DNA of 64,000 nt from Candidatus Binatia bacterium. GTDB taxonomy: Bacteria; Desulfobacterota; Binatia; Bin18. The stretch's first letter is position 1, and each line of letters opens with the position of its first letter. Below, piece after piece: positions 9,326-31,117 of the stretch. The DNA lies in the NCBI GenBank assembly GCA_963422435.1, contig OY729511.1:728103-792102 (forward strand), in the 5' to 3' direction. The notes beneath the pieces were generated by a model. That model searched no databases and had not been told where the DNA came from. It worked only from the letters and a program-made list of their open reading frames with translations. The position numbers and the translations under genes were made by a program.

Positions 9326-9331
9326 ACTCTG

Positions 9332-10431: not shown

Positions 10432-10517
10432 GGCGGGGGAACGAAACCAGGCTTCAAAAAGCACTCGGAGATAACCTGGACATCAGAGAAGCGGATTCTG
10501 AAGACAGCGTTCAATAA
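10311..10517 (+). CDS. hypothetical small protein (alternative frame, TTG start)
   Basis: 68 aa charged sequence with host-like GC3 in its first half; no domain recognised. Confidence 0.25.
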   Translation: METNFAKINRINHAEITAFKHKVLNAEHHGRTIREWARLLGRGNETRLQKALGDNLDIREADSEDSVQ

Positions 10518-13757: not shown

Positions 13758-14711
13758 TTAGCCTGTTATGAGCGCCCGGAGCGCCTGGCCGGTCGTTGCG
13801 CCACGCAGCGCTCGCCCCCTGGGGTCGGGGGCCAGCGCCTGGATCAGCAACTGCTGGAAATCCACGTGTCGCTCGGCCCAGTCCCGGACCGCGGCCAGGC
13901 GGTCAAAGAGCGCCAGGCGCACGGCGTAGGCCTCAATCTCATCCTGCTGCCCGTCCTCGGGGGCGCTGCCAGGCGCGGCGTATGGCCGGGCTTCAGTCAA
14001 AAATCTCGCCACCTCGGCCGGGACATGAGCCGAGAGGCTCGTTGCCTCGCTCACGGCCTTCCGTATTGCGGTTGAGGAGAGATCGGCGACAGACTCGGGC
14101 AGGGGCAGGAAATGAATCGCGTCCCGGTAGGGTTGATTGTTGGAGCGCTGTAACAATTCGTCAAACGCACGCCGGGCCATATCGCCCCGGTTGGCGACAA
14201 CAAGAGAGGTCAGCGCAAAAAGCTGCTCCAGAGCCGCCTCCCGATCACGGTAGTAGCGCGCGTCCAGAATCTGCACCAGCTTGTCCATGCCCACAATAAG
14301 AAACAGCCCGACCGGCTTGTCAAAGAGGGACTGAAATGCCTGTGCCTGCTCAAAATAGAGCCCGCGGTTGACCAGAGCCACACCCAGGTGTTGCTGCTGC
14401 TCCACGTGCAGGAGGAGCAATAACAGGCGATCTTCCAGACCCATCCCCGTTACCTGTTCCTTATCCACGGTGACCTTTGCCGCCGTATACAAGAGTTGGT
14501 CCAGTTGAAAGGCGCGGCAGGCGTGTTGCGCGAGCACGACGTGCGCCAGGGTGAGGGGGTTGAACGAGCCGCACAAGACGCCCAGCCGTTGCGGTGGCGG
14601 GTGCGGCGGTGCGGACAGCAGCCGGGCTGTGGGAGGCGCGGCACTATCGAGAGACTGAAGACGATCCCGCAGCACAAACAAGCGGGACAGGTCGTAGAAT
14701 TCAGCGGACAT
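13758..14711 (-). CDS. NadD-like nucleotidyltransferase (cytidylyltransferase superfamily) with C-terminal extension
   Basis: LGVLCGSFNPLTLAH resembles the GxFxPxHxxH nucleotidyltransferase motif. Confidence 0.5.
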   Translation of the reverse strand: MSAEFYDLSRLFVLRDRLQSLDSAAPPTARLLSAPPHPPPQRLGVLCGSFNPLTLAHVVLAQHACRAFQLDQLLYTAAKVTVDKEQVTGMGLEDRLLLLLLHVEQQQHLGVALVNRGLYFEQAQAFQSLFDKPVGLFLIVGMDKLVQILDARYYRDREAALEQLFALTSLVVANRGDMARRAFDELLQRSNNQPYRDAIHFLPLPESVADLSSTAIRKAVSEATSLSAHVPAEVARFLTEARPYAAPGSAPEDGQQDEIEAYAVRLALFDRLAAVRDWAERHVDFQQLLIQALAPDPRGRALRGATTGQALRALITG

Positions 14712-14868
14712 GACTCACCCAGCAGCATACACGACTTCGCCACACTGCGCAGGCCGGGCCGGAGGGAGTCCATGGGCGCCCGCTTTTCTGACGGCGCAGC
14801 CCAACCTTTTTGGCCGGCTCGATATCCCAGGATTGACGGTCAATTTCAGCGCGTGCTACCCTCTGCCG

Positions 14869-16671: not shown

Positions 16672-17524
16672 CAGCGGCGCTTCAGGCCGGCCTCCCCGGC
16701 GCAGGGCTCTCTCGTTATTCTGGCGCTTGGTTCTTGCCGGTCTCATCGTCTGGGGAAGCGGCTGTGCCGCTCGCAAGCCTTCTCCACCTTTGCCTCCGCC
16801 TCCAGCCTCCCTCCCGTCTACCCAAGAGTTGCTGGCCCCGCTTCAGGTCCGTCAGCAGGCCCTCACCGGCCTCCGCGGGCTGGCCAAGGTCTCGTACCGG
16901 GACGCGGTTGAGCGGGGTTCGGCGACCCAAGCCGTTGCCCTGGCCGCTCCTGACCGCTTTCGCCTGGAGCTGTTCACACTCCTGGGTGTGGCTGCCATTC
17001 ACACCTGCGATGGACAACAGCTAGCCGCCTATTTGCCGCGCGATAAGGTCCTCTACCGAGGAGTTGCCAGCCCGTTCAATATCGCCCGTTTGACCCAGGT
17101 ACTGCTCTCGGCGCGCGAGATCACGCGCCTGCTGATGGGCCTTCCGCCCTTTCTGGTGGAAGGGATGGTCGCGCCGGTGCGCCGTGAGCCGGCCGGCCCC
17201 TACCGGCTCGACTTTCGGCGCTCGAATGGGAGCCTGACAACGCTGCGGTTCGACTCAGAAACAAAGCGCCTCACAGGCTGGGCAGTCAGGGATGAGACCG
17301 GTACGCTCCAGGCCCAGGGCGAGTTGGGTGACTATCGGCAGGTGCAGGATATCTTTTTCCCGTTTGCCATCAGCCTGTCCGCTGCGCAAGGAGCCCAGCA
17401 GGTCTCGCTCGCCTATCAGGAAGTCTCGGTCGTTCCTGACCCGTCCGCGGCGCTCTTTCGCTTGGACCTGCCCGCGGGGGTCGAGGAGATCGATATTGAT
17501 GCCTATCGTCTGCACAGCCCGTAG
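16658..17524 (+). CDS. hypothetical lipoprotein
   Basis: Lipoprotein-like N-terminus LAGLIVWGSGC; overlaps end of upstream TPR gene. Confidence 0.5.
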   Translation: MISSSSGASGRPPRRRALSLFWRLVLAGLIVWGSGCAARKPSPPLPPPPASLPSTQELLAPLQVRQQALTGLRGLAKVSYRDAVERGSATQAVALAAPDRFRLELFTLLGVAAIHTCDGQQLAAYLPRDKVLYRGVASPFNIARLTQVLLSAREITRLLMGLPPFLVEGMVAPVRREPAGPYRLDFRRSNGSLTTLRFDSETKRLTGWAVRDETGTLQAQGELGDYRQVQDIFFPFAISLSAAQGAQQVSLAYQEVSVVPDPSAALFRLDLPAGVEEIDIDAYRLHSP

Positions 17525-17543
17525 AGAGAACGGGCGGGTATCA

Positions 17544-17594
17544 AGAGGAAACGTGTCCAGCATCTCCATACTGTTGGAGGACACGTTTCCTCTT
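17544..17594. terminator. 16-bp perfect inverted repeat hairpin between convergent genes
   Basis: AAGAGGAAACGTGTCC-(18 nt loop)-GGACACGTTTCCTCTT, located after the stop of 16658..17524 (+) and after the stop of 17600..18055 (-). Confidence 0.4.
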
Positions 17595-17599
17595 TCGGA

Positions 17600-18055
17600 T
17601 CAGTGCGAGGTCTCGTCTCTTTTGAAGACAACCGCAAAGCCGCGCCGGGCCAATGAAAATTTCCGATCCGCGGATTGGGCGTAACGCCCGAACTGACCCT
17701 GCTTCTGCTGTTGCACCCAATCCGGGAAGGAGTCTTCGATATTCATATGAGCGACTTCTTGGGGGGGCAGTAGGACGACGGCATCGGCTCCCACCTCGCA
17801 GGCTTTATCCCGGATGAGGGCGTTCATGCTTTCCAGCCCGTCAATTTCGTTCCCATAGGAAACAATATGAACGAAGACGGCATACGGCCGTGCCGGGGGA
17901 GAGGTCAGCATAGTCACTGGGCAATCGACAGGACGCGCTTCCGGGTAGATGGGGGCAATGCGTTCCTCAATGGCAACCGGTTTTGCCGGGCGCATAAAAC
18001 AGCCCGTGAGAAAAATCAGCCCAACACCGACCCACCAACAGAATGGTGTACGCAC
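17600..18055 (-). CDS. hypothetical lipoprotein
   Basis: MRTPFCWWVGVGLIFLTGC lipoprotein signal; 151 aa. Confidence 0.5.
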   Translation of the reverse strand: MRTPFCWWVGVGLIFLTGCFMRPAKPVAIEERIAPIYPEARPVDCPVTMLTSPPARPYAVFVHIVSYGNEIDGLESMNALIRDKACEVGADAVVLLPPQEVAHMNIEDSFPDWVQQQKQGQFGRYAQSADRKFSLARRGFAVVFKRDETSH

Positions 18056-18192
18056 GCTGCTCCCCCTTCAATGAGTAAGCGCGCCAACATCTTTGTGTCT
18101 GTTGGAGGGCACGTTTCCTCATTTTGTCGTATCGCCCGCAGACTGGCGAGTAGCATAGAATGCCCCCGGTACGGGCGCAAGTCTCGACCCGG

Positions 18193-19368
18193 CTATCCGG
18201 CCTGGTCCCTGAGCAGCTTCCGGGCAATCACCCAACGGTGTACCTCAGTTGGTCCTTCAAAAATCCGCATGGGCCGCAGGCGCCGATAGATAAACTCAAG
18301 CGGCATCTCTTTGGACATACCCATACCCCCGTGCATCTGCATGGCTCGGTCGGCCACCCGGGTCGCCATTTCCGTGGCAAACACCTTGAGCATGGAGGCC
18401 TCCTGGCGGACATCGTCGCCCTGATCGAATTTCCAGGCTCCGTGATGCACCATCAGCCGCGAGGCGTGAATATCGGTCGCCGAGTCGGCAATAAACCACT
18501 GAATGGCCTGGCGGTCGGCCAGCTTCTGGCCAAAAGTCACGCGCTGTTTGGCATACTCAACCATCATGTCCAGACAGCGCTGCGCCAAGCCCACACACCA
18601 GCTTCCCATTTCCAGGCGGCGGACGGTCAGGCGGAGTTGCATGGGCGCAAAGCCCTGTCCGACTTCGCCCAGGACCTGGGAATCCGGGAGGGTCAGGTCT
18701 TCAAACACCAGCTCCCAGGGCGCATGGCCGCCAATAACCGGAATCTGGCGTTGCAGCACCAGACCGGGAGTCCCCTTATCCACCAGGAAGGCCGTAATCC
18801 CGCCGCGGGCGCCCTTACCCTTCTCCGTCACCGCCATGACAATAATAAAGTCAGCGACGTGGGCACGTGAGATCCAGATTTTCCGCCCGTTGAGTATCCA
18901 CTGGTCCCCTTTTTTCACAGCAGAGGTCTGCATGCCGGCCGGGTCTGAGCCGGCTCCGGGTTCGGAAATGGCAATGGCCGAATGCGCCGTGCCCTGGGCA
19001 TACGGCAGGAGGTATTTCTCCCGCTGCTCGGGTGTACAGGTTTGCATCAACATGTGCAGATTGGGCGCATCGGGCGGAAAGGTAAACGGCGTGATGGTCT
19101 TATACAGTTCCTCGGTCGCCAGACATTTCGGCAACGCCCCCAGGTTCAGTCCGCCAAATTCCTCGGGCACGTCCAGCCCCCACAGACCGGCTTCTCGGGC
19201 GACTGACAGCAAACGTTCTTCAGCCTCGGACGGCACCAGGTCCTCACCGGTCATGCCCTGCGTATCGCGCTCCAGAACCGTGGTCTCCAGCGGCATCAGT
19301 TCCTGACGCACGAAGCGGCGCACCGTCTCCTGCAACATGCGGTATTCTTCGGGCAGTTCAAAATCCAT
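18193..19368 (-). CDS. acyl-CoA dehydrogenase
   Basis: Likely start MDFELPEEYRML (ATG 19366-19368). ACAD family motifs throughout. Confidence 0.85.
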   Translation of the reverse strand: MDFELPEEYRMLQETVRRFVRQELMPLETTVLERDTQGMTGEDLVPSEAEERLLSVAREAGLWGLDVPEEFGGLNLGALPKCLATEELYKTITPFTFPPDAPNLHMLMQTCTPEQREKYLLPYAQGTAHSAIAISEPGAGSDPAGMQTSAVKKGDQWILNGRKIWISRAHVADFIIVMAVTEKGKGARGGITAFLVDKGTPGLVLQRQIPVIGGHAPWELVFEDLTLPDSQVLGEVGQGFAPMQLRLTVRRLEMGSWCVGLAQRCLDMMVEYAKQRVTFGQKLADRQAIQWFIADSATDIHASRLMVHHGAWKFDQGDDVRQEASMLKVFATEMATRVADRAMQMHGGMGMSKEMPLEFIYRRLRPMRIFEGPTEVHRWVIARKLLRDQAG

Positions 19369-19466
19369 ATATCTGTCCTTTCCGCAACAGACTGCCGGAC
19401 AGCCTAGCAGGATCGGACACGGAAATGCAGGGGTGACCGTGGATCGAACTTGCGTTCCTGCCCGAG

Positions 19467-22400
19467 GTGCCCATATGTCATGTCGAAGAGCCAAAAATGA
19501 GAGCCGCCCTGGAGCCACAGATGGAAAAACACTCCCTCATACTGGACAATCGCTTACGCACAGTCGCCGATTATCTTTGCGCGCATCTGCCGGACGCCGA
19601 AGTCTTTCGCCTGGTTTCGGCGTATTTCAGCGTTTACGGCTACGAGGCACTGCAACACGAACTGAGCGGCATCAAAGACGTGCGGTTTCTCTTTGGCGAC
19701 CCCGCGTCAGCGGGCGAATTGGACCCTGGGGGGAAAGCGCCCAAATCCTTTGACCTGAGTGAAAAGGGATTGTTGCCCAACCACGCCTTGCAGCAGAAAT
19801 ACCTCGCACAGCAATGCGCCGCATGGGTACAAAGCCGGCGGGTCAAAATCCGGTCCATCAGCCAAGCCAATTTTCTGCACGGCAAGATGTATCTCACCGA
19901 ATCCGCGGACGCCGTTGGCTCAGTAGTGGTGGGGAGTTCCAACTTCACCCGGCGCGGGCTGGGCTGTGGCGCGGGCGCGAATCTGGAGATCAATCTGGCG
20001 ACTAGCGATAGGGAATCCTACGCTGAGTTACAAAAGTGGTTTGATGCGCTTTGGGCAGACAAGGAGTTGACCAGGGATGTCAAGCAAGCCGTCCTGGACG
20101 CGCTGAATCGCATAGGCCGAGACCACGCGCCTGAACTCGTCTATTACAAAACCCTGTACGCGCTGTTCCGGGATGACATCGAAGCCAGAAGGGACGGCGA
20201 AAGACAACTGGCGGATGCACACCTGTACGACACCGCAATCTGGAACGCGCTGTACGACTTCCAAAAAGACGGTGCCAAAAGCGCCATTGCCCGCCTGTTG
20301 CGGCACAACGGCTGCATCTTGGCCGACAGCGTCGGGCTGGGGAAAACCTATACGGCGTTGGCGGTCATCAGGTTCTTTGAACTGAGAAATGAACGGGTAC
20401 TGGTCTTATGTCCCAAAAAACTGCGCGACAATTGGGCACTCTATCCGGATTACACCGCAAATACGAACAACCCTTTTGACAAGGATCGCTTCGGTTACAC
20501 GCTGTTGTCACACACCGATTTGTCCCGCGACCAAGGCAAAGCCGGGGATGTTGATCTGGCCCAGTTCAACTGGCGCAATTTTGACTTGGTCGTCATTGAC
20601 GAATCGCATAACTTTCGCAATGCCAGCGTAAGCCGTCGGGACGAAGCAGGCAGAATCATCCGCCTCAGCCGCTACGAGCGACTCCTCGAAGAAGTCATCA
20701 GACAAGGGGCCAAAACAAAGGTACTGATGCTTTCGGCCACACCGGTCAACACCTCGCTCATAGACCTGCGCAATCAGGTCTATCTGATGACCGAAAAGCG
20801 TGAGGACGTTTTCCGGGACAGTTTGGGCATCGGCCACATCGGCGCTCTACTCGGGCAGGCGCAAAAGGCGTTTCAGAAGTGGGAAGAGGACGGCCAAAAA
20901 GACAAGACGGCGCTGCTGGAAAAATTGGGTGCCGATTTTTTTCGTTTACTCGGGGGTGTTTCCATTTCCCGCTCGCGGCGGCAGATCAAAAAATTCTACG
21001 CCGAGGAAATGAGCCGTATCGGCGAGTTCCCAACCCGCCAAAAACCGCAAAATTATTATCCGCCAACCGATTTGCAAGGCGTTTTATCCTACACGGATTT
21101 GTCCGAGCAGATAGAGCAATTCGCCCTGTCCATCTACCGGCCCTCCACCTACGTTGCCAGCGAACAGGCAAAGCAGCGCTTGGCCAAAGAAAAGCAAGAG
21201 CAACACTTCAATCAGCTAGACCGCGAACGCTTTTTGATCGGTATGATGCGGGTGAACTTTCTGAAACGGCTGGAGAGCTCGGCCCACTCGCTCACGGAAA
21301 CGCTCAGTCGCGCTATTGGCAAAATAGACGCCCTGCTGAAAAAGATAGAACGGTACGAACAGCAACAGACCCTACAGGACGCCCAAGCCGACATCCTGCC
21401 GGACGACGATGAAGACGACGAGGACTTTCTGATCAATCGGGCGCGGAACCCGTATCACCTCCAGGAATTGGATCTGCCGCGTTGGAAAACGGACTTGCTG
21501 AAAGATAGGGAGACCCTGACAGGAGCGTGGAAAAAGGTTGCAGCCATTGCGCCCGAGCGAGACGGCAAGCTACAGGAGCTTCGGAAGCATATCCGTGAAA
21601 AGACGGAGAACCCGACGACCGACCAAGACGGCAATCCCAATCGCAAGCTGCTGGTATTCACCACCTTCAAGGATACCGCCCGATACCTGTACACACACCT
21701 GTCGGATGTCGCCACGGAATTAGGCCTGAGCATGGTGATGGTCGCCGGGGATACAACGCAAACTACCTTTGGCGACAACAACTTTAACGCAATTCTGACC
21801 AACTTCGCACCGCGGGCACGCGGACGCACCGAGGGCACGAGCGGCGAAATCGATGTGCTGATTGCCACCGACTGCATTTCGGAGGGGCAGAATCTTCAGG
21901 ACTGCGACACGGTCTTGAACTACGACATCCATTGGAATCCGGTGCGTCTCATTCAGCGCTTCGGGCGGGTTGACCGCATCGGCAGCCGTCACAAGTCGAT
22001 ACGGATGCTCAACTACTGGCCGACCAAAGACATGGAGGTGTATTTGCGCCTGCAAAGTCGCGTGGAGGCCCGCATGGCCTTGGCGGACGCGGCGGCCAGC
22101 GGCAACGATGACCCGTTGAACGAGTCCACCTTTGAGCAGGCCCAGATGGAACTGAATTTCCGCGACCAGCAATTGCAACAACTGCGCCAAGAGGTGCTGG
22201 ACTTGGACGATTTGTCCGACGGCGTGGTCATGAGCGATTTTACCTTGGATTACTTCTTTGCCCAACTGCTGCGCTATCTGGAGAAAAACAAGGCGGAATT
22301 GGAAGCGACCCCTAACGGCGCATACGCGGTCACACAAGGCGAGGACAATACTATAAGACCGGGGGTGCTGTTTTTTCTGCGTCAGCGCAACGCGAGTGCG

Positions 22401-22799
22401 GACAAACAAGAAAAAATCGCCAGCCCAATTCATCCGTATTATGCGGTGTATATCCGCAACAGCGGCGACATTCGCTATAGTTGCGCCAACGCCCGACAGG
22501 TGTTGGAGGTATTTGAAGCGTCGGCAATTGGCAAGACCAAACCGCTGCAAAGGCTGTGCGACCAGTTTGACCGCGAAATTCAGAACGGCACTGACATGAG
22601 CCATTATGATAAACTGTTGGACGCAGTGATTACCCACATCAGCAGGGCAAACACCACAACCCAAATAACACATCTGGGGATTGGCGGTCAGCGCGACATC
22701 AAACTGCCCGTGCAATCCGCCAGTCCGAGCAACGGCGATTTCGAGTTGGTCACGTGGCTCGTTGTGCTTGAACCACGGGCTGACCCCAGGGCAAAATAA
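19467..22799 (+). CDS. PLD(HKD)-family nuclease domain fused to SNF2-family helicase
   Basis: N-terminal HKD-like motif FLHGKMYLTE....GSSNFT. SNF2 motifs: I ILADSVGLGKTYTA, II LVVIDESHNFRN, III LMLSATPVNT, V/VI VLIATDCISEGQNLQD...QRFGRVDRIGS. GTG start at 19467; alternative ATG at 19497. Confidence 0.85.
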   Translation: MPICHVEEPKMRAALEPQMEKHSLILDNRLRTVADYLCAHLPDAEVFRLVSAYFSVYGYEALQHELSGIKDVRFLFGDPASAGELDPGGKAPKSFDLSEKGLLPNHALQQKYLAQQCAAWVQSRRVKIRSISQANFLHGKMYLTESADAVGSVVVGSSNFTRRGLGCGAGANLEINLATSDRESYAELQKWFDALWADKELTRDVKQAVLDALNRIGRDHAPELVYYKTLYALFRDDIEARRDGERQLADAHLYDTAIWNALYDFQKDGAKSAIARLLRHNGCILADSVGLGKTYTALAVIRFFELRNERVLVLCPKKLRDNWALYPDYTANTNNPFDKDRFGYTLLSHTDLSRDQGKAGDVDLAQFNWRNFDLVVIDESHNFRNASVSRRDEAGRIIRLSRYERLLEEVIRQGAKTKVLMLSATPVNTSLIDLRNQVYLMTEKREDVFRDSLGIGHIGALLGQAQKAFQKWEEDGQKDKTALLEKLGADFFRLLGGVSISRSRRQIKKFYAEEMSRIGEFPTRQKPQNYYPPTDLQGVLSYTDLSEQIEQFALSIYRPSTYVASEQAKQRLAKEKQEQHFNQLDRERFLIGMMRVNFLKRLESSAHSLTETLSRAIGKIDALLKKIERYEQQQTLQDAQADILPDDDEDDEDFLINRARNPYHLQELDLPRWKTDLLKDRETLTGAWKKVAAIAPERDGKLQELRKHIREKTENPTTDQDGNPNRKLLVFTTFKDTARYLYTHLSDVATELGLSMVMVAGDTTQTTFGDNNFNAILTNFAPRARGRTEGTSGEIDVLIATDCISEGQNLQDCDTVLNYDIHWNPVRLIQRFGRVDRIGSRHKSIRMLNYWPTKDMEVYLRLQSRVEARMALADAAASGNDDPLNESTFEQAQMELNFRDQQLQQLRQEVLDLDDLSDGVVMSDFTLDYFFAQLLRYLEKNKAELEATPNGAYAVTQGEDNTIRPGVLFFLRQRNASADKQEKIASPIHPYYAVYIRNSGDIRYSCANARQVLEVFEASAIGKTKPLQRLCDQFDREIQNGTDMSHYDKLLDAVITHISRANTTTQITHLGIGGQRDIKLPVQSASPSNGDFELVTWLVVLEPRADPRAK

Positions 22800-22813
22800 G
22801 CGGGGTCATCACC

Positions 22814-23095
22814 ATGCTGTATTTTACAGACGAAGAACTGCTGCAAATCATCGCAGCCGGCGAATCCGACCGCGTCGAGTTCAAGGAGTCTTTATCCGGC
22901 GACGCCGCCACCAGAATCAGGGAAGCCATCTGCGCCTTTGCCAACGATTTGGCCGGTCACGACAAACCCGGTTTTGTGTTCGTAGGCGTGAAGGACGACC
23001 GAACAATGGGTGATCTCGTTGCCGCCACCGACGCCCGCAGGGCTTTGGCGACAAAGATAGTGCACAAAATCGGGCTTGGCCCGGGTCTCGAATAA
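22814..23095 (+). pseudogene. AlbA_2 (Schlafen-like DNA-binding) domain fragment
   Basis: ESDRVEFKESL...ICAFANDLAGHDKPGFVFVGVKDD matches the AlbA_2 N-terminal domain. Only 93 aa, and it overlaps the start of the downstream methyltransferase. Confidence 0.45.
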
Positions 23096-23117
23096 CCCGC
23101 CTCACAAAAGAAGCAAC

Positions 23118-26100
23118 ATGGACCGAGCAAAAGGGCATAGACGCACTGACACGCTGGTAGAAGCGGTGAAAGCCGGCCTTGCGACAATGCCAACTGACGA
23201 TGTATTGACAACGGCTCAAAACCTGCTCGGGGTTCTGGGCTACCGGAGCAGCCGCACGCTGCACGGCCAGTCCGGCAATGTTGACGACTTCATCGGGCAG
23301 TTCCCCGCTCCCAAGTCCAACACGGCGACCGAACAGGCGTTCCGCGAAAATGTCCAATCCGTACAGTTCGTCTTTCAACTCACAAGTGATGAAATTGCCT
23401 CAGCCAAGCCGCCAACGCCCGGGCTTGAGACCGCTTCCTTTGACACAGGACACCCGCAGAGTTTTTTCTTTTTCGCCGTTGAGTTGAAGGAAGCCAACTA
23501 CGCCCGGAGCAAATACGCCGAGTTCACGCGCGAGCTGAACAAGCGACTGATTGCGCCAACGGTGGTGCTTTTCACAACACAACAAGGTCGTCTCACGTTG
23601 GCTTTTGTTCACCGCCGGCAACACAAACATGACCCGAGCCGTGATGTATTGGGCAGTGTGTCGCTGGTGCGTGACATCAATCCAACTCAGCCGCACCGCG
23701 CCCACCTGGACATCCTGGCCGAACTGTCGCTGGAACATCTTCTGTCTTGGATGAGCGACCACAACAAGCCCCATGATTTCGATGGCCTGTTAGCGGCCTG
23801 GCTCAACGCCCTGAATACCGAAGCCCTTAACAAACGGTTCTACACCGAGCTGTTCGACTGGTTCGAGTGGACGGTAGGCGAGGCGACCTTCCCGACCCAA
23901 GAACAGAAAGTCTTGCCACCCGAAGAGCATAGTATTCGCCTCATTACTCGCCTGCTGTTTGTCTGGTTCATCAAGGAGAAAAGGCTGATTGCGGAGGATT
24001 TGTTCAACGAGACGAAAATTGCAGACCTGTTAAAAAACTACGACCGCGACACGGGCGATTCGTACTACCGCGCCGTGCTGCAAAACCTGTTTTTCGCCAC
24101 CCTGAACACCGAGATAGACAAGCGCGGCTTCAGCAAAGAGAAAGACTCTACCCACCGCAATTTTTCGCTGTACCGCTACAAGTCGGAGATAAGCGACCCG
24201 GAAAAACTGCTGGCCTTATTCGCCCGAACACCATTCATCAACGGTGGTTTATTCGACTGTCTGGACAGCGAAGAAGGCATCCGGGACGGCGGCTACCGGA
24301 TTGACTGCTTTTCTGACAACGAGCGGCATTACACCAAGTTGAGCCTTCCCAACCGTCTGTTCTTTGGCGAACATGGGCTGATTCCCCTGTTCAACCGCTA
24401 CAAGTTCACGGTGGAGGAGAACACGCCGGTCGAGCAGGAAGTGGCGCTAGACCCGGAGCTTCTGGGCAAGGTGTTCGAGAATCTGCTGGCCGCCTACAAC
24501 CCGGAAACCCGCCAAACCGCCCGCAAGCAGACCGGCTCGTATTACACGCCGCGCCCGGTAGTGGACTACATGGTGGACGAGGCTCTGCTGGCATCGCTCG
24601 CGCAGCAATGCCGGCCAACCGACGGTGCCGCCACGTTCTGGCAGGAGCGGCTGCGGTATCTCTTGAATTATGAGGACGCTTTCAGCGATGCAGACGAACT
24701 GTTTGACAAGGACGAAGCAGCAGGTATCGTGCGCACCATTGCGGGCCTCAAGATACTCGACCCGGCGGTTGGCTCTGGCGCTTTTCCGATGGGTGTCTTG
24801 CACAAGCTGACCTTGGCGTTGAGAAGAATCGACCCCGACAACACCCGCTGGGCAACTCTGCAAAAAGAACGCGCCCGAGAAAAGGCGGACGCAGCGTTCG
24901 AGACCAAAGACCGGCACGAGCGCGATGCTGAACTGCTGGAAATCAGCGAGACCTTTGAAAAGTATGCAGGCGACTTCGGGCGCAAGCTGTACCTGATTCA
25001 AAACAGCATCTTCGGCGTGGACATTCAGCCCATCGCCTGTCAGATTGCCAAGCTGCGCTTTTTCATCTCGCTGGCGATTGAACAGGAAGCCAACAACAAC
25101 CCCAACGACAACTACGGCATCAAGCCTCTGCCCAATCTGGAAACGCGCTTCATCGCCGCGGATACGCTGCTGAAGCTCAGCGGTGAGCGGATGCTGACCA
25201 GCGAAAAAGCGCAGATTTTGGAGCATCAGTTGCTTGAAAACCGCGAGCGGCATTTTCATGCCACCACGCGCCAGAAGAAACTGGCTTACAAAAAAGAAGA
25301 CAAGCGATTGCGCGGAGAATTGGCGCAGGCATTAGAAAGCCTTGGATTTCCCACGGATGACGCCAACAAAATCGCCCACTGGGACCCCTACGATCAGAAT
25401 GCAACGGCGGCTTGGTTCGATGCCGAATATATGTTTGGCGTGACCGGCGGCTTCGACGTGGTGCTGGGCAATCCGCCGTATATCCAGTTGCAGAAGAACG
25501 GCGGCACATTGGGCAGGAAATACGCGGGGCAGGACTTTCAAACCTTTGTTCGCTCCGGGGACATTTACCAGTTGTTCTATGAACGTGCCGGTCAACTGCT
25601 GAGCGACCAAGGGCACCTGTGCTTCATTACGTCCAATAGCTGGTTGAAGGCCAAATACGGCGAGAAGCTGCGCCGCTACTTCACAGACAAGCACACGCCC
25701 ATGAAACTGCTGGAAATGGGTAAGGACATCTTTGAAAACGCCATTGTGGATAACAACATCCTGCTGGTCAGAGCCGGCAAGAGCGATACCGTCGGCAGCG
25801 CCGTTGACGTGGAACGCCTGCCCGACCAAACCTTCCCGCCGGCTGAAAAACTCTGGGGTAAACTCCGGCTCCGAGACAGCGAGCCGTGGATGGCACTGTC
25901 TGCCGTCGAGCGGGGCATCATGGACAAGATGCAGGCCATCGGTACGCCGCTGAAAGAATGGGATATTGCCATTAACTACGGAATAAAAACCGGCTACAAC
26001 GCCGCGTTTATCGTCGATAAAAAGACCAAAAACGCACTGGTTGCCGAAGACCCCAGGTCGGAAGAGCTACTGAAACCGATTCTGCGCGGAAGGGATATCA

Positions 26101-26588
26101 AGCGCTATCGGGTGGAATGGGCGAGACTGTGGGTGATTGATTCACACAACGGTTACGGCGATGTGCCGCCAATCAATGTTGATGATTATATCGCCATCAA
26201 GCGGCATCTGGATCAATTCTATCCTCAGTTGAAAAAGCGGCAAGATAAGGGAATAACGCCGTACAATCTGCGCCATTGTGCTTACCACGAAGAGTTTCTG
26301 CGCGATAAGCTCGTTTGGATGGATCTGTCGCCACAAGGCCGGTTCGCCTACTCCAACGAGGAAGTGTATTGCAACAATAAGGCGTTCCTGATGATAGGTT
26401 TTCCGTTGAAATATCTCTGCGCGGTGTTGAACAGCACCATTGTCACTTGGCTGGTCAATAAAACTGCTCGGACAACCGGAGTCGGATTAACACAATGGGA
26501 AAAATTCACCGTCGAAGCTATCCCTATCCCCAACATCCCTGCCATAGAGCAACACCCGTTCATCCGCTTGATTGACCGTATCCTGTAA
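23118..26588 (+). CDS. MmeI / PglX-like large N6-adenine DNA methyltransferase (Type IIL/IIG-like)
   Basis: Motif X TGSYYTPRPVVDYMV, motif I LKILDPAVGSGAFP, motif IV VVLGNPPYIQ. FINGGLFD as in MmeI. N-terminal D-x12-ELK arrangement (FDTGHPQSFFFFAVELK) resembles the MmeI PD-ExK. ORF ends at TAA 26586-26588, though the conserved C-terminal tail continues in frame. Confidence 0.85.
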   Translation: MDRAKGHRRTDTLVEAVKAGLATMPTDDVLTTAQNLLGVLGYRSSRTLHGQSGNVDDFIGQFPAPKSNTATEQAFRENVQSVQFVFQLTSDEIASAKPPTPGLETASFDTGHPQSFFFFAVELKEANYARSKYAEFTRELNKRLIAPTVVLFTTQQGRLTLAFVHRRQHKHDPSRDVLGSVSLVRDINPTQPHRAHLDILAELSLEHLLSWMSDHNKPHDFDGLLAAWLNALNTEALNKRFYTELFDWFEWTVGEATFPTQEQKVLPPEEHSIRLITRLLFVWFIKEKRLIAEDLFNETKIADLLKNYDRDTGDSYYRAVLQNLFFATLNTEIDKRGFSKEKDSTHRNFSLYRYKSEISDPEKLLALFARTPFINGGLFDCLDSEEGIRDGGYRIDCFSDNERHYTKLSLPNRLFFGEHGLIPLFNRYKFTVEENTPVEQEVALDPELLGKVFENLLAAYNPETRQTARKQTGSYYTPRPVVDYMVDEALLASLAQQCRPTDGAATFWQERLRYLLNYEDAFSDADELFDKDEAAGIVRTIAGLKILDPAVGSGAFPMGVLHKLTLALRRIDPDNTRWATLQKERAREKADAAFETKDRHERDAELLEISETFEKYAGDFGRKLYLIQNSIFGVDIQPIACQIAKLRFFISLAIEQEANNNPNDNYGIKPLPNLETRFIAADTLLKLSGERMLTSEKAQILEHQLLENRERHFHATTRQKKLAYKKEDKRLRGELAQALESLGFPTDDANKIAHWDPYDQNATAAWFDAEYMFGVTGGFDVVLGNPPYIQLQKNGGTLGRKYAGQDFQTFVRSGDIYQLFYERAGQLLSDQGHLCFITSNSWLKAKYGEKLRRYFTDKHTPMKLLEMGKDIFENAIVDNNILLVRAGKSDTVGSAVDVERLPDQTFPPAEKLWGKLRLRDSEPWMALSAVERGIMDKMQAIGTPLKEWDIAINYGIKTGYNAAFIVDKKTKNALVAEDPRSEELLKPILRGRDIKRYRVEWARLWVIDSHNGYGDVPPINVDDYIAIKRHLDQFYPQLKKRQDKGITPYNLRHCAYHEEFLRDKLVWMDLSPQGRFAYSNEEVYCNNKAFLMIGFPLKYLCAVLNSTIVTWLVNKTARTTGVGLTQWEKFTVEAIPIPNIPAIEQHPFIRLIDRIL

Positions 26589-26708
26589 GCCAAAGCCGAC
26601 AACCCATCCGCGGATGCCAGCGAGCAGGAAGCGGAGATCAACCGGCTGGTGTATGGGCTATATGACCTGACGGAGGAAGAGATTAAACTTGTGGAGCAGA
26701 TGAGATAG
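26589..26708 (+). pseudogene. in-frame continuation (conserved methyltransferase C-terminal tail) cut off by the premature TAA
   Basis: AKADNPSADASEQEAEINRLVYGLYDLTEEEIKLVEQMR-TAG matches the ...EAEIDRLVYxLYGLTEEEIxIVE tail typical of Type I/IIG methyltransferases. Confidence 0.55.
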
Positions 26709-26755
26709 GATAAGCCAAGAATATCAGCAAATTAAAGATAAAATTTATTCTTTTA

Positions 26756-27145
26756 CTACTTGCCCTCGTTGCTACCCGAGGTTTTGTACAAGTCATCAAA
26801 ATGCCACAACTTTTCTATTAAATACTTAAGCAAAACACCCAAGGCACTACTAATAATATCCAGTGTAAAACCCAGTCCGGTGCTTGCCTGAAAACTTCCT
26901 GATGCTATTAGCCAAATTGCTACCGCAATTAGAACTATAATTATCAAGCAAAGGAAAGCCGATGCGGCTCTTGAAAACCAGGTTTGCCAAGCGAGATGCT
27001 TGAACCGGGAAATCTCTACGGTATGGCTATGTTCCTGCTGTCGGCTTTCTAATCCTTGCTCATGCTCTTGCTTTGCAGTCCCCCTTGGAGCTTCCTGTTT
27101 CTGCTCATCCAGTCGCGGGTCTTTAATGGGGGGTCTGTCATTCAT
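26756..27145 (-). CDS. small 2-TM membrane protein (candidate toxin partner of Panacea gene)
   Basis: 129 aa. Charged N-terminus then hydrophobic helices FLCLIIIVLIAVAIWLIA and GFTLDIISSALGVLL. Its start codon abuts the stop of the upstream Panacea gene. Confidence 0.5.
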   Translation of the reverse strand: MNDRPPIKDPRLDEQKQEAPRGTAKQEHEQGLESRQQEHSHTVEISRFKHLAWQTWFSRAASAFLCLIIIVLIAVAIWLIASGSFQASTGLGFTLDIISSALGVLLKYLIEKLWHFDDLYKTSGSNEGK

Positions 27146-27608
27146 TTAGTTGCTCATGATCTGTTTGAAATGTTTCTTTATTTCTTCCCGGTTTAATTTG
27201 TTGTTTGCTTTTTGCTTAGCCGATGACCAGGGTGTGTCTGATTCATGTGTCAAATTTGAAAGGTATAAACCAGAGTAAGGAGAATAGAGGTCCCAAACCT
27301 GGCCCAGCACCCAGTGGAAATCAACATCCTCCTCAGGCACTCCCTCTCTATCCACGGGTCCATATAATTCCCAGTTTTCCTTACTGATAGGCAAGCTTCC
27401 AAAAGTTTTGCGCATGATAGATGTCCGGGAATACTGGTCCATAGGGCCAAGCCTCTGGCTCATTCTCGATTGCTGGCTGGTTAAAACACGCCAAGTGCCA
27501 TCCATGAACCAGATATGCCAGTTTTTGTAACTTAAGTGGGCTAATCGGTGTATTTTGCTCAAACGACAGCTTCAACACACTATTGGCAACTTGCAGTGCA
27601 GAATACAT
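27146..27608 (-). pseudogene. Panacea-domain (DUF4065, SocA/GepA-like) protein, frameshifted
   Basis: N-terminal frame (27608->27381) MYSALQVANSVLKL...LKLQKLAYLVHGWHLA...EAWPYGPVFPDIYHA. C-terminal frame (from ~27409 to 27146) KTFGSLPISKENWELYGPV...LSNLTHESDTPW. The two halves join at an A4/T4 homopolymer near 27397-27406. AGGAGG RBS upstream of 27608. Confidence 0.65.
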
Positions 27609-27830
27609 TCTTGATTACCTCCTAGATCGCTTGTAGCTCAGATAGGCATTGAACTCAATTCACCAGTTGAGCTATCACTGCGCGGTAAAGAGCTGATTAT
27701 TATTCCTGTGGTTCCGCCCAGCTTTGACACTGGAGGGAGTGTCGAACCAAGTCAATGCGCGCAACTTGCACGGTGAAGTAGGTATCGTGGCCATATTGTA
27801 TATGTTGACATCTGCCGATTTGAAAAACTA

Positions 27831-28010
27831 CCAATCCCTAAAATTTCCGAATCGGAACGACAATCGTTCATAGCGTTGGTGGATAAAGTAATCGCTGGTA
27901 AAGAAAGCGGGTACAGACACCATCGGATGGAAGCCGAAATCGACGCGCGGATGTATGAGCCTTACAATCTGGCGGATAAGGAGATTGCGGCTGTGGATGA
28001 GTGCAAGTGA
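27831..28010 (+). pseudogene. remnant copy 2 of methyltransferase C-terminal tail
   Basis: IPKISESERQSFIALVDKVIAGK....MEAEIDARMYEPYNLADKEIAAVDECK-TGA parallels IPNIPAIEQHPFIRLIDRIL-AKADNP...EAEINRLVYGLYDLTEEEIKLVE of the full gene. Confidence 0.5.
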
Positions 28011-28110
28011 AATCACACAAAAAGGAGGGGCAGATTGGATTTTTTGAGAAGGGGAAAAACCTTGTTCAATTTGCTGAACGCAACAGACACCCCAAAAGCA
28101 AGGACAATCC

Positions 28111-28518
28111 ATGAATGGCATGGAAAAGGTCGTCAAACACCTTGAGATGACCCAAACCGTAATCAACCGATTGGGTAATAACTCCTTCCAACTCAAAGGT
28201 TGGAGCATGACCCTCATTGTGGCCGCGATGGTACTAATTGGTCGATATGGCTTGCAGAACCCATGCATCATCCTGACGTTTATCCTCCCTATTTTGGGAT
28301 TCTGGATTCTAGATGGGTACTTCCTTTGGCAGGAGAGGTTGTTCCGACAGGTCTATGATGAAATCAGGCAGCAAGATAACACCGACTTCAAGATGGATGT
28401 GATGAAGCACAGGGACAAACCCAAATGCAGTTGGTGGTCTGCCGCATTTTCTGTCACGCTCGTTATTTTTTACGCGGTCGAATTCGTATTTATTCTTGCC
28501 ACTTTCGTCATACTTTAA
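28111..28518 (+). CDS. small 3-TM membrane protein (upstream partner of TIR-like gene)
   Basis: 135 aa. Hydrophobic helices WSMTLIVAAMVLIG, CIILTFILPILGFWIL, WWSAAFSVTLVIFYAVEFVFILATFVIL. AT-rich codon usage; 14-nt gap to next gene. Confidence 0.55.
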   Translation: MNGMEKVVKHLEMTQTVINRLGNNSFQLKGWSMTLIVAAMVLIGRYGLQNPCIILTFILPILGFWILDGYFLWQERLFRQVYDEIRQQDNTDFKMDVMKHRDKPKCSWWSAAFSVTLVIFYAVEFVFILATFVIL

Positions 28519-28532
28519 ATGGAGGCGCCAGC

Positions 28533-28970
28533 ATGAGACACGTATTTTTTAGCTTCAAATATAAAGATGTTTCCAGAGCAATGGTTGTGAGAAATAGCTG
28601 GGTTACTCAAGGTAACGAAGCGGCTGGTTTTATAGATGCTGCGGATTTTGAGAAGATCAAACGGCAGGGTGATGCATCCATCAGACGCTGGATTGATAAC
28701 CAGCTACAAGGCACTTCCGTAACCGTCGTCCTAGTTGGACAACACACATGCAGTAGTCGTTGGGTAAGGTACGAAATAGATAAAAGTATTGAAAGAGGCA
28801 ACGGTCTTCTGGGTATCGACATAAGTAAAATCAACGATTTACAGGGACGCACCAGCGAACTATGTGGACAAATCCCAAAGGGTTCCCCATTCTACTTGTG
28901 GGACAAAGACAATGGTTATGGCAATCTCGGCGACTGGATTGAAAAAGCCGCACAGCAAGCCGGAAGATAG
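28533..28970 (+). CDS. TIR-like domain protein (DUF1863 / ThsB-like)
   Basis: GGAGG RBS, ATG 28533. MRHVFFSFKYKDVSRAMVVRNSWVT...SSRWVRYEIDKSIERGNGLLGI matches the ThsB/DUF1863 TIR-like signature as I recall it. Confidence 0.65.
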   Translation: MRHVFFSFKYKDVSRAMVVRNSWVTQGNEAAGFIDAADFEKIKRQGDASIRRWIDNQLQGTSVTVVLVGQHTCSSRWVRYEIDKSIERGNGLLGIDISKINDLQGRTSELCGQIPKGSPFYLWDKDNGYGNLGDWIEKAAQQAGR

Positions 28971-28971
28971 G

Positions 28972-29069
28972 GACACCACCGAACAGGAAGCCGGGATAGA
29001 TCACAACTGGTCTACGCGCTGTACGGGCTGACGGAGGGGGAATTTGACATTGTGGAGGGGGAAAGATGA
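28972..29069 (+). pseudogene. remnant copy 3 of methyltransferase C-terminal tail (carries an indel)
   Basis: DTTEQEAGID (one frame) + QLVYALYGLTEGEFDIVEGER-TGA (adjacent frame) parallels DASEQEAEINRLVYGLYDLTEEEIKLVE. The TGA overlaps the ATG of the next gene (ATGA). Confidence 0.45.
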
Positions 29070-30295
29070 GTGCGTCCGAACGGCAAGACACAACCTCTAC
29101 AATCTTGGCTTTGATTCAGGAAATCATGGAAAAGTCCGCCGATGGAGACTATATCTATCGCGGTGAACCAGAGTGCTACCCCAAAGTATCCTCAACGCTT
29201 CATCGCGAATACGCAGAGGTGGATGCGGAGAACTTTAAATTGGAGGACGTCCAGAAGGAGATACTGGAACAGGCCAGGAAATACACAGCCGTAACTGACG
29301 CGCTGGAAATCTTGACAGAACTCCAGCACCACGGCGGCAACACCAATCTTATCGATTTTACGAACGACTGCCACATAGCGCTCTTTTTCGCCTGTGACGG
29401 CTCCCCTGACAAAGATGGCAGGGTTATCCTGCTGAAAAAAGCAACGGAACAAGGCCAGATCAGAGAGCCCCGGAACCCTGTCAACCGCGTCATCGCTTAG
29501 AAGAGCATCTTTGTGCAGCCACCGAAAGGCTTTATTAACCCCGACGGAGAAATCATCATCCCGAAAAACCTCAAACAGCCCATACTGAACCATCTGCGAA
29601 AATACAACGGCATATCCACCGAAACCATCTACAACGACCTGCACGGCTTTATCAAACATCGGGGAATCCACCAAAGCGCCTACACGGAGTTTTACAGAGG
29701 TCTGACTTATTCGAGAAAGGGAGTTGAATCGGCAGACAAGGAAGAACAACAGAGATTCTATGAAAAGGCCATTGCACATTACACTGAAGCCTTGAGATTG
29801 AACCCAAATCTTGCCGAGGCATACAACAACCGGGGCACCGCCAAGGTAGAACTTGGACAACACCAGGAAGCGATTGTGGATTTTGATACGGCGATAGGAA
29901 TCAATCCGAACCATGCCGCAGCCCGCAACAACCGGGGAATCGCCAAGGTAGAACTTGGACAACACCAGGAAGCGATTGTGGATTTTGATACGGCAATAAA
30001 CCTCAATCCGCACGATGCCAAAGCCTACAACAACCGGGGCACCGCCAAGAGAGGACTTGGACAACACCAGGAAGCGATTGTGGATTTTGATACGGCAATA
30101 AACCTCAATCCGCACTATGCCGAAGCCTACTACAACCGGGGCACCGCCAAGAGAGGACTTGGTCGGAATCAGGAAGCCCGCGAAGATTTTCAAACATGCC
30201 TCACCCTGGCAAAAGCACAGGGTAATGCCGAGCTTGTCGAGCTTGCCCAAAAGGCGCTGGATACTCTGGGGCTTGGTAGCGGTAGTTCGGATTAG
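29066..30295 (+). pseudogene. FRG-domain protein with C-terminal TPR repeats, interrupted by in-frame TAG (29498-29500)
   Basis: FRG-like motifs YIYRGEPECYPKVSSTLHRE and LQHHGGNTNLIDFTNDCHIALFFA. ORFs 29066..29500 and 29513..30295 are in the same frame, separated only by the TAG. The C-terminal half is four near-identical TPR units. Confidence 0.55.
29806..30180 (+). repeat. four tandem ~102-bp near-identical repeats (each one TPR unit) inside the FRG-TPR gene
   Basis: Repeating GCCTACAACAACCGGGGCACCGCCAAG...CAACACCAGGAAGCGATTGTGGATTTTGATACGGC(G/A)ATA units with a few substitutions. Confidence 0.8.
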
Positions 30296-30415
30296 GTACT
30301 CGTACTTCAGCCATAATAGGCCCCTTTTGCTCTTTAAGAATCATCCCTCCAGGGCTCTTGCCTTCAGCCCTGCCGATATCTCCAAAACTGGCCAAACGTC
30401 AAGTTTAAGATCATA

Positions 30416-31117
30416 ATGTACTCCATGGCCGTTACTGCACGCATAGGACGCCCACCCGGGGCAGATGGCGAAGCGACGCGGGAAACCATTCTGAAGGCCG
30501 CCCTCGAAGCCTTTGCCGAGGCCGGCTACGAGGCCATGTCCGTGCGTGCGCTGGCCCGTCGGCTGGGCGTCAGCCACAACCTGATTCACCATCATTTCGA
30601 GTCCAAACGACAGCTCTGGTATGAGGCCATAGATTTTGGGCTCGGCCGACGGGCGAGTGAAATCCGTCAGTTTCTGGAGATACCCGAGTCCAATCCGCAG
30701 GATGCGATTACCGGATTTTGTGAAGGGGTACGCCGCTTCATTCTGCTCGGCGCTCATCTGCCTGCCATCCCTCGGATTTTGCTCCATGAATTCGCTGAAG
30801 GAGGCGAACGGCTCGACTATATCTACGAGCAGCATCTTCAACCCCTGGTCGAAGGGGCGATTCGATTCCTCAAGCATCTGGGGGATGCCAAGGCGGGCGA
30901 TATTGATGCTCGGAGCTTTATCCTCCTGATTGGCACCAGTACCCTCTCCCTCTTCAATCAGTCTGCGTTTGCCGAGAAGATTGGCGGTCCCGACCCCTTC
31001 TCCGAAGAAACGGTCGAGCGCCATATTCGGACGGTCACGCGTCTCGTGCTCACTGGTGTGTTGGCGGAACCGCTGAACAATCCTTTTACTGCATCCGGTT
31101 CACATCGTCCGGGTTGA
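30416..31117 (+). CDS. TetR-family transcriptional regulator
   Basis: N-terminal [43 protein letters not shown]. Confidence 0.8.

Follow-up and report, generated by a model that had tools for sequence, protein, structure and literature searches.

How do three copies of the end of one gene come to stand in tandem, each with different genes behind it? A defence island in a 64,000-nucleotide (nt) stretch of DNA from a Candidatus Binatia bacterium (contig OY729511.1, positions 728,103 to 792,102 of the forward strand) raises this question. In this stretch, which at its full length is called the window below, the conserved C-terminal tail of a DNA methyltransferase (MTase) gene occurs three times. 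An earlier note on the same DNA had taken the three for decaying copies of one tail at a hotspot, and had proposed that defence cargo was serially inserted or replaced there with the tail as homology arm or attachment site, leaving nested scars. It named as checks an alignment of the three segments, a comparison of cargo across related genomes, and a search for an integrase or recombination-site motif. The explanation we favour, with about even confidence, is that the three tails are the 3'-end scars of three different MTase alleles, left by repeated recombination at the gene end, with the tail serving as portable homology.

Tails of loci outside the window, 30 in number, were made into a nucleotide profile, which was searched with nhmmer against both strands of the 64 kb. 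It matched at three sites only, 26568-26697 (E 4.4e-26), 27874-28000 (E 2.2e-9), and 28971-29059 (E 5.6e-14), and no further tail site was found in the window at E<=10. A protein profile of the tail returned E-values of 6e-14, 1.7e-17, and 2e-4 for copies 1, 2, and 3, respectively. All three segments are on the + strand, and their positions differ by no more than about 30 nt from those given in the earlier note. The MTase gene and its tails are as follows.

23076 to 26588, + strand: Eco57I/TaqI_C-type N6-adenine MTase gene, type IIG-like (Pfam Eco57I 2e-34, TaqI_C 3e-14; PADLOC REase_MTase_IIG 1.5e-139).
26589 to 26708, + strand: tail copy 1, the resident MTase's own C-terminal tail (translation; nhmmer).
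27804 to 28010, + strand: tail copy 2, an orphan MTase 3' end of about 68 codons in open frame (protein profile 27804-28001).
28972 to 29069, + strand: tail copy 3, an orphan, frameshifted MTase 3' end (translations; nhmmer 28971-29059).

The MTase open reading frame (ORF) of 1170 amino acids (aa) ends prematurely at an in-frame TAA (26586-26588). Immediately behind it the same frame continues as copy 1 (translation AKADNPSADASEQEAEINRLVYGLYDLTEEEIKLVEQMR, then stop), as the earlier note had read it, and MTase homologues have IL-x-AK where the window has TAA; copy 1 is therefore the tail of the resident gene, cut off by a nonsense codon. Copy 2 (translation VDICRFEKLPIPKISESERQSFIALVDKVIAGKESGYRHHRMEAEIDARMYEPYNLADKEIAAVDECK, then stop) covers positions 31-98 of the 100 in the protein profile and extends back to the ...LPIP... 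motif of the TaqI_C domain. Its previously given end at 28010 was correct, but its start lies at 27804 by protein profile and translation, not at 27831. Copy 3 (sequence GTGGAGGGGGAAAGATGAGTG) begins one base past the stop codon of a TIR gene and reads DTTEQEAGID, a frameshift, then QLVYALYGLTEGEFDIVEGER and stop. Its TGA overlaps the ATG of an FRG-TPR gene at 29066 (ATGA), with GGAGG within the end of the copy, in agreement with the indel and overlap noted earlier. The copies are spaced 1302 and 1059 nt apart, and the inserts between them, of about 1.1 kb and 0.96 kb, hold no mobility gene.

Aligned at the nucleotide level, the three segments proved to be related, with identities over the shared 3' ~85 nt of 65% (copies 1/2), 79% (1/3), and 64% (2/3). 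They are not decaying copies of one tail, however. Over 64 aligned codons copies 1 and 2 are 51% identical, with identities of 0.52, 0.61, and 0.41 at codon positions 1, 2, and 3, and with proportions of synonymous and nonsynonymous differences of 0.66 (pS) and 0.43 (pN). Because third codon positions are the least conserved and the frame of copy 2 is open, this pattern identifies copies 1 and 2 as long-separated coding alleles, not local duplicates or products of neutral decay.

We further investigated how such tails are distributed in related loci. The MTase was searched against one genome per species, giving 47 loci (48 with the window), nearly all of them in metagenome-assembled genomes of Latescibacterota, Poribacteria, Caldilineaceae, and similar groups, which are typical sponge symbionts. 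Orphan tails (E<1e-3) were found in 10 of the 48 loci (L003, L008, L010, L017, L019, L026, L029, L031, L042, and the window). Every orphan in these ten loci lay on the MTase strand, downstream of the MTase, and was 3'-complete and 5'-truncated, with 5' ends varying continuously from profile position 5 to 99. As a control, the MTase was divided into 19 consecutive 60-aa blocks and extra copies of each were counted in the 48 loci. The last block had 13 extra copies, and 14 in segments shorter than 150 aa, whereas every other block had 1-5, and 0-1 in short segments. Since only the last block has many extra copies, tail-only remnants are a specific feature and not general gene debris. The hotspot proposed for the MTase 3' end was thus borne out by the orphans in 10 of 48 loci and by their restriction to the last block, and the gene end looks like a general recombination hotspot. 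At about 13520-13640 of L020, a strongly decayed tail (...VCGLYGGLTAEKIKIAEES...) behind an alternative-type MTase was missed by the profiles, so the orphan counts are lower bounds.

The examined orphans were each followed, after no more than roughly 200 nt, by a gene on the same strand, and in the most clear-cut examples the orphan's stop overlapped the start of that gene. The orphan and DUF3644 gene of L003 match the intact MTase tail and homologous gene of L012, with an ATGA overlap in both. L010 and L008 have in common an orphan followed by a pair of genes for 82 and 111 aa, at differing distances from the MTase. In L019 the orphan is 5' of an AAA_15 ATPase gene; the order in L049 is MTase, AAA_15, orphan, DUF5677, orphan, TIR_2, and a pair of transmembrane (TM) and TIR genes; and L053, a locus without an MTase, has a weak orphan before a TIR gene. 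In these arrangements the orphan tail travels together with the gene that follows it. In the MTase family, genes with accessory defence or toxin-antitoxin (TA) roles stand directly behind the tail, often translationally coupled to it with an ATGA stop/start overlap, and the VEG codons at the tail end are GTGGAGGG, a Shine-Dalgarno-like sequence a few bases before the ATG of the next gene. Such a sequence could partly account for the joint movement of the outermost 3' end and the gene downstream of it.

Tail-derived units were also seen in arrays. Three loci of one Poribacteria genome (OZ244042.1) carry, behind three different MTase genes and with no genes between, up to 10 copies of 46-153-nt units derived from the last 18 tail codons and a dispersed repeat (L031 13384-15130, L026 13578-14802, L029 13628-13836). 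An opposite-strand ORF behind the L031 array reads as an IS1595-type transposase, by its sequence only. The dispersed repeat follows Poribacteria MTase genes. It consists of ...TGTCTGAATC(G/A)CGGATTA... and then CGGATTA units and inverted copies, stands at gene ends, and often supplies the stop (...ENV and stop). It was seen in L001, L008, L013, L014, L017 (for example at 3660, 6222, 9738, 13523, 14609, and 19545), L018, L021, L027, L028, L030, L032, and L041, and the window is without it. Its presence in both Poribacteria- and Latescibacterota-labelled loci is unusual for a REP-like element.

The MTase gene itself was then compared between loci. From 19538 to 25488 the window is 90-93% identical at the nucleotide level to L003, a Latescibacteria genome, and the two are unrelated thereafter; the flanks of both loci are also unrelated. 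The different C-terminal module of L003 is common to L019, L020, and L021. L050 holds a 5'-truncated MTase of 407 aa that begins at the equivalent of 25467, which together with the L003 border marks one recurrent position.

25467 to 25488: recurrent recombination breakpoint just past NPPY, at the border of core and target-recognition domain (TRD) (L003 homology stops at 25488; L050 remnant starts at the 25467 equivalent).

In Poribacteria alleles the tail (last 45 codons) has nucleotide identities of 0.8-0.93, often above the core (0.5-0.7 in many pairs) and always above the TRD (0.35-0.46). In this comparison the MTase gene is therefore a conserved core, a swappable TRD module that begins directly behind NPPY and stops ~45 codons short of the gene end, and a conserved tail with the family consensus ...EIDxLVYxLYGLTEEEIxIVEG. 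Since core and C-terminal segment bracket a non-homologous module between close relatives, the alignments identify the MTase as a mosaic and its module as mobile. Among the metagenome contigs described next (L054-L173), the last ~20 residues (IDxLVYxLYGLTEEEIxIVEG) are common to at least four C-terminal regions that differ otherwise, such as ...HDRMVALVERML...RQIDATDRQID..., ...LRKNK.HLGVSLSD...RTDRLID..., and ...KKKVKLTL.EE.EWE.YF..... From its sequence, the tail looks like a module shared across MTase families.

Clean insertions at the tail were found elsewhere. L017 corresponds to L030/L028 with an additional 956 nt, on either side of which stands a 130-nt direct repeat. The two repeats share 90% identity with each other and 86-92% with the single copy in L030/L028. 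The gene in the insert encodes 223 aa, contains an RHSIIH motif, and matches no family. Metagenomes were scanned with an IUPAC pattern encoding YxLYGLTEEEI, which finds intact motifs only, and 120 contigs among the matches were listed (L054-L173). Five of these (L075, L078, L087, L101, and L123) hold two same-strand tails 857-970 nt apart, within direct repeats of 97-220 nt that are 80-99% identical; the sharpest is L123, with 137-nt repeats of 99.3% identity around an 807-nt insert. The inserts carry co-oriented small ORFs, some of them toxin-antitoxin-like (HTH_3, NYN, a membrane protein, a HepT-like ribonuclease, and in L123 a 159-aa ORF without family match). A single cargo family behind the ~0.9-kb spacing of the double tails was rejected, as the genes carried show no relationship to one another. 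On the left, the clean insertions begin within about -6 to +20 nt of the MTase stop codon. The listed contigs contain 125 motif matches: 53 in a long ORF, 8 with MTase-body homology upstream, 30 orphan (no MTase-body homology in 1.2 kb upstream), and 34 not classifiable because of a contig edge or too little upstream sequence. Orphans are thus about one third of the classifiable intact motifs on these contigs, a rough figure obtained with no control motif.

The cargo of the window is as follows.

26756 to 27145, - strand: cargo 1a, ORF for a 129-aa membrane protein, putative toxin partner of the Panacea gene (membrane assignment read from the ORF's sequence).
27146 to 27608, - strand: cargo 1b, Panacea (SocA/PanA-type antitoxin) gene (Pfam PF13274 8.8e-10 on the N-terminal ORF 27381-27608).
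27626 to 27784, + strand: truncated mazE antitoxin remnant, 5' end missing, no mazF (70% nucleotide identity over 159 nt to L015 9427-9584, E 9e-13).
28111 to 28518, + strand: cargo 2a, membrane protein PDC-M50A (PADLOC PDLC04686 1.5e-38).
28533 to 28970, + strand: cargo 2b, ThsB-like TIR protein PDC-M50B (Pfam ThsB_TIR 3e-25; PADLOC ThsB 1e-55, PDC-M50B 2.7e-46).
29066 to 30295, + strand: FRG-TPR gene, PDC-S15-like (Pfam FRG 6e-14, TPR; PADLOC PDC-S15 on both halves).

The Panacea and TM pair behind copy 1 is as the earlier note described, and the Panacea gene is in addition broken by a frameshift near 27400: the family match covers profile positions 1-40 of 113 on a 75-aa ORF, and the remainder is in another frame. 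Cargo 1a has no significant family match in Pfam or PADLOC. The mazE remnant sits between Panacea and copy 2, and its assignment follows from the L015 ORFs, which are MazE (PF04014) and MazF/PemK (PF02452). The TM and TIR pair behind copy 2 matches PDC-M50A/B, and the two adjacent ORFs correspond to the PADLOC candidate system PDC-M50, a predicted defence system. FRG (29066-29500) and TPR (29513-30295) form one reading frame interrupted by an in-frame TAG (29498-29500) where L017 has a glutamine codon; FRG-TPR is also downstream of the MTase in L008, L017, L027, and L041. The nonsense codon of the MTase, the frameshift of Panacea, and the nonsense codon of FRG-TPR make the island of the window a decaying mosaic. 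These three inactivating lesions (26586-26588, ~27400, and 29498-29500) fall within 3 kb, the MTase TAA being 39 codons before the gene end; the helicase upstream of the MTase, both membrane-protein ORFs, and the TIR gene are still open.

Three other readings of the sequence around copy 2 were considered. An extension of copy 2 upstream into the TaqI_C region through a 21-nt repeat (26405-26425 versus 27666-27686, 86%) was rejected, as that stretch is the mazE remnant, and a remnant of the CGGATTA dispersed repeat behind copy 2 (GCAGATTGGATTTTTTGAG) was rejected, as the repeat profile finds no match in the window. A third, tentative reading is the short 'MSASE' after copy 2 (ATGAGTGCAAGTGAA), which resembles the FRG start after copy 3; the FRG N-terminus is not conserved between loci.

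The earlier note had the cargo bounded by the tails, and this part of its serial-insertion proposal was not supported for the window; its reading of the tails as scars was. TM+TIR homology runs exactly from 28111, the TM ATG, to 28971, one base past the TIR stop, with 85-92% nucleotide identity to six other, unrelated contexts. By these alignments TM+TIR behaves as a discrete cassette with its own sharp borders. A second TM copy, 76% identical, is present in L049 and L050. A conserved element of ~45 nt (GGAAATGGACTCTGTCCACTCTCCGAGTGATGTGTAAACGG) stands 5' of the TM gene in several contexts, behind differing upstream genes (L049 about 5500-5578 and 8880-8955; upstream of the TM gene in L050, L051, and L052), and may be another carried-along gene-end remnant or a regulatory site.

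Related genomes also allowed the same chromosomal site to be compared, and here, as at paralogous loci, the cargo proved variable.

14043 to 19479: left flank (CTP-transferase-like, TPR protein, DUF4292, acyl-CoA dehydrogenase; 88% nucleotide identity to L048 8-5342; Pfam).

This flank is 88% identical to L048 and L053, and the right flank is not shared. Beside the same acyl-CoA dehydrogenase gene, L048 has TM+TIR alone and L053 has DUF5677, an orphan tail, TIR, and TM+TIR; neither has the helicase or the MTase. The same core flank with differing island content in the window, L048, and L053 is what defines a defence-island hotspot. TM+TIR is 91.4% identical between L048 and L053 whereas the following 3 kb are 100% identical, and a recombination tract therefore ended at the cassette border. 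From this comparison, conserved cassettes can act as recombination anchors as well. Because the tails are heterologous, no sign of an attachment (att) site was found, and the cassette has its own borders, the local order of events in the window cannot be deduced from the tails alone or taken for simple serial insertion into one resident tail.

Under the favoured explanation, the three scars would lie in a defence island inserted beside the acyl-CoA dehydrogenase gene, where recombination would repeatedly have replaced or added DNA at the MTase gene end. Conserved segments would serve as anchors for the crossovers: on the left side the core, on the right side either the tail or a cassette that is itself conserved, such as TM+TIR. 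Each event would leave the prior tail, 5'-truncated and 3'-complete, ahead of the block that it formerly preceded, and blocks would therefore stack behind one intact MTase. The gene end would combine conserved DNA shared among alleles, a swappable module alongside, and coupled accessory genes behind. We infer RecA-type homologous or homeologous crossovers, possibly via circular intermediates of tail and cargo, and a ribosome-binding-site role that would aid retention of the tail end.

Several points weigh against this explanation. Among the genomes compared, no near-identical pair shows the window locus before and after an event, and the window tail identities of 64-79% are too low for efficient RecA recombination between these copies. 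The TM+TIR borders are the cassette's own start and stop codons and are not in the tails, so not every island junction used a tail. The nucleotide conservation of the Poribacteria tails could partly reflect the adjoining dispersed repeat, not recombination. The tail end may act as Shine-Dalgarno sequence for the next gene, an idea that comes from reading the sequence only. Finally, the mazE remnant at copy 2 and the 407-aa truncated MTase of L050 fit stepwise deletion at least as well.

When the window is read jointly with the clean insertions, a broader explanation is possible, which we put forward tentatively: the MTase tail (Eco57I/TaqI_C-type and related) would be a general landing pad for small, integrase-less TA, abortive infection (Abi), and defence cassettes. 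Insertion would take place at the MTase stop codon, 100-200 nt of the tail being duplicated, and the cassettes would be co-transcribed with the MTase. They would pop out as one-tail circles and re-enter any MTase with a similar tail, in a RecA-driven, integron-like manner, and orphan tails would be the footprints of this cassette traffic.

The main rival is deletion, which we consider doubtful as the source of the window's tails. Two or three complete tandem helicase-MTase-accessory systems would have been whittled down until only the tails survived, deletion stopping there because the last codons hold the ribosome-binding site and the stop/start overlap of the downstream gene. The 5'-truncated MTase of L050, with no MTase body upstream, and the two tandem MTase genes of L006 speak for such a process. 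Copy 2 abuts the mazE remnant, and in L015 mazEF sits between helicase and MTase, so one internal deletion from mazE to the MTase end would yield exactly the copy 2 junction. The ATGA overlaps and the GGAGG inside the tail end agree with it, as do many of the listed metagenome orphans, which have no MTase within 5-12 kb upstream. However, the 48 loci hold no intermediate-sized remnants of other MTase blocks, and a ribosome-binding site accounts for ~15 nt kept, not for 60-200 nt. The 956-nt insertion of L017 relative to L030, with its 130-nt repeat, and the 99.3%-identical 137-nt repeats around the 807-nt insert of L123 are clean gains. The block control and these clean events count against whittling as the sole process.

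It is unlikely for the window, although it occurs elsewhere, that every cargo was inserted into this locus's own resident tail with duplication of that tail, the copies having once been identical and having diverged since. Duplication in situ is seen directly in L017 (130 nt, 90%) and in L075, L078, L087, L101, and L123 (97-220 nt, 80-99%), restriction-modification genes are known to insert with long target duplication (PMC2853133), and the window spacing of 1302 and 1059 nt resembles the 857-970 nt of the double-tail contigs. But copies 1 and 2, only 51% identical over 64 codons, have diverged in a protein-selection pattern with the frame of copy 2 open. TM+TIR is common to the orthologous locus without an MTase, and cargo 1 is on the opposite strand, unlike the co-oriented cargo of the clean cases.

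We consider it highly improbable that an att-like or dif-like site in the tail was used by an integrase, Xer-type, or integron-like enzyme acting in trans. The left junctions of the clean insertions fall within about -6 to +20 nt of the MTase stop, their cargo is co-oriented with the MTase, and targeting of gene 3' ends with an element-borne replacement end is familiar from integrative elements at tRNA and icd sites. Yet repeat lengths and 5' ends vary continuously, and the longest run identical in all three copies is 6 nt in a three-way alignment, so there is no identical core. A search for inverted-repeat sites in 26000-30400 yielded nothing beyond weak pairs, 14-27 nt long. No integrase, recombinase, or transposase was found among the island ORFs and the ORFs scanned at 10.4-19.5 kb and 30.4-32.7 kb, as the earlier note had seen for the cargo, and none is present in the gene tables of L048-L053. 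Of the two roles that the note had offered for the tail, attachment site was not supported, for lack of an integrase, a shared identical core, or a fixed breakpoint in the loci compared; homology arm was supported at the family level, given the Poribacteria tail identity, the last-block remnants, and the 97-220-nt repeats. Chance similarity or an assembly artefact, to which only the shortness of copy 3 lends anything, can be dismissed in view of the profile E-values of 4e-26 to 2e-9 with no other match at E<=10 in the window, the same pattern in independent assemblies, and an identical TIR protein on record from a 3.9-Mb contig.

The remainder of the island consists of the genes 5' of the MTase.

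19467 to 22799, + strand: HKD/PLD-SNF2 helicase (Pfam PLDc_2, SNF2-rel_dom, Helicase_C; PADLOC C3a139 'HKD+Snf2' 5e-112).
22814 to 23095, + strand: AlbA_2/Schlafen-type domain fragment, 93 aa (Pfam PF04326 1.2e-8, profile positions 1-48 of 118 only).

The helicase is 93% identical at the nucleotide level to that of L003 and is a conserved partner gene, directly 5' of the MTase in most of the related loci. Homologues of the AlbA_2 fragment are present in L003, L017, L032, and L042. The gap between helicase and MTase is a second variable spot: where the window has its AlbA_2 fragment, L003 has longer ones and L015 an intact mazEF (9330-9900). Helicase and MTase match DrmD and DrmMI partially, their best matches being 'HKD+Snf2' (C3a139) and REase_MTase_IIG; with no DrmA or DrmB gene in the island, it does not qualify as DISARM class 1. 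The GC content is 0.60-0.66 in the core, 0.52-0.59 in helicase and MTase, and 0.39-0.48 in the cargo, which is thus AT-rich, as had been pointed out before. Rfam gave no match at E<=1 in window 26000-30500 or in five related loci, and no solved structure matched the C-terminal 200 aa of the MTase. A separate N6_N4-type DNA methylase gene lies at 10483-11577 on the - strand, ~8 kb upstream of the island.

No prior description of the tail motif, its orphans, or the hotspot was found in the literature searched. The nearest known process is the insertion of restriction-modification genes with long target duplication, which is mechanistically poorly understood (Nobusato et al. 2000; Furuta, Abe and Kobayashi 2010, PMC2853133). 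Its inserts are shorter than 20 kb and without transposase or integrase, its repeats of tens to hundreds of bp are single-copy in the empty-site genome, and they often span the stop or start of a gene (PMC2853133). L017 compared with L030 and the contigs L075, L078, L087, L101, and L123 fit this description. Repeats of more than 30 bp aligning to a single empty-site copy, as used by Furuta et al. 2010, are found in L017 versus L030/L028; the genomes compared gave no empty site for the window, whose repeats are heterologous alleles of 64-79% identity with coding-type divergence and no fresh duplication. The window inserts likewise lack a transposase or integrase and are under 20 kb. They hold no R and M homologues, which that work places in the insert, but Panacea/TM and TM/TIR, as the inserts of other contigs hold NYN, HepT, HTH_3, and membrane proteins. 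In long target duplication the inserted unit is a restriction-modification system and the targets are unrelated sites, whereas here insertion always affects one place, the conserved tail of the MTase, and what enters is a small module for TA, Abi, or defence.

TRD swapping in Type IIG and Type I restriction-modification genes ('allelic diversity of the TRD', 'domain movement'; PMC2853133, PMC3077401, PMC3467074) resembles our case in that conserved flanks bracket an exchanged module: homology of the window to L003 ends after NPPY and the tail is conserved beyond. Classical swapping is not known to leave duplicated ends or to carry extra genes, whereas in our case cargo from downstream can be part of what is exchanged, and an orphan tail stays behind. 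As in defence-island hotspots, the same core flank carries differing AT-rich content that includes PADLOC candidate systems. Such hotspots are as a rule recognised by their core-gene flanks and by integrases of mobile elements; in our island the borders of the blocks are marked from within, by the recurring MTase tail. Integrative elements that target the 3' end of a gene (tRNA and tmRNA islands; e14 and phage 21 in icd) bring a replacement end. A second 3' end that keeps the target gene intact, with the displaced end as an imperfect direct repeat beyond the insert, is seen in both; however, an integrase gene and an identical crossover core are features of such elements, and neither was found here. 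Like integron cassettes, the small, promoterless, co-oriented cassettes are stacked behind a fixed point and read from upstream, but no IntI, attI, or attC-like imperfect inverted repeats were found, and the repeated element is the coding sequence of a neighbouring gene.

How defence islands grow without obvious mobile-element machinery is the open question that these results address. For the window itself the message is the smaller one of a decaying mosaic; the pattern appears general and worth a proper survey. If the conserved MTase end is indeed shared homology, it would explain why modules cluster behind restriction-modification genes, and orphan tails would be a simple sequence marker for cassette borders and for new defence genes. 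Long target duplication would then be extended from restriction-modification genes to their cargo.

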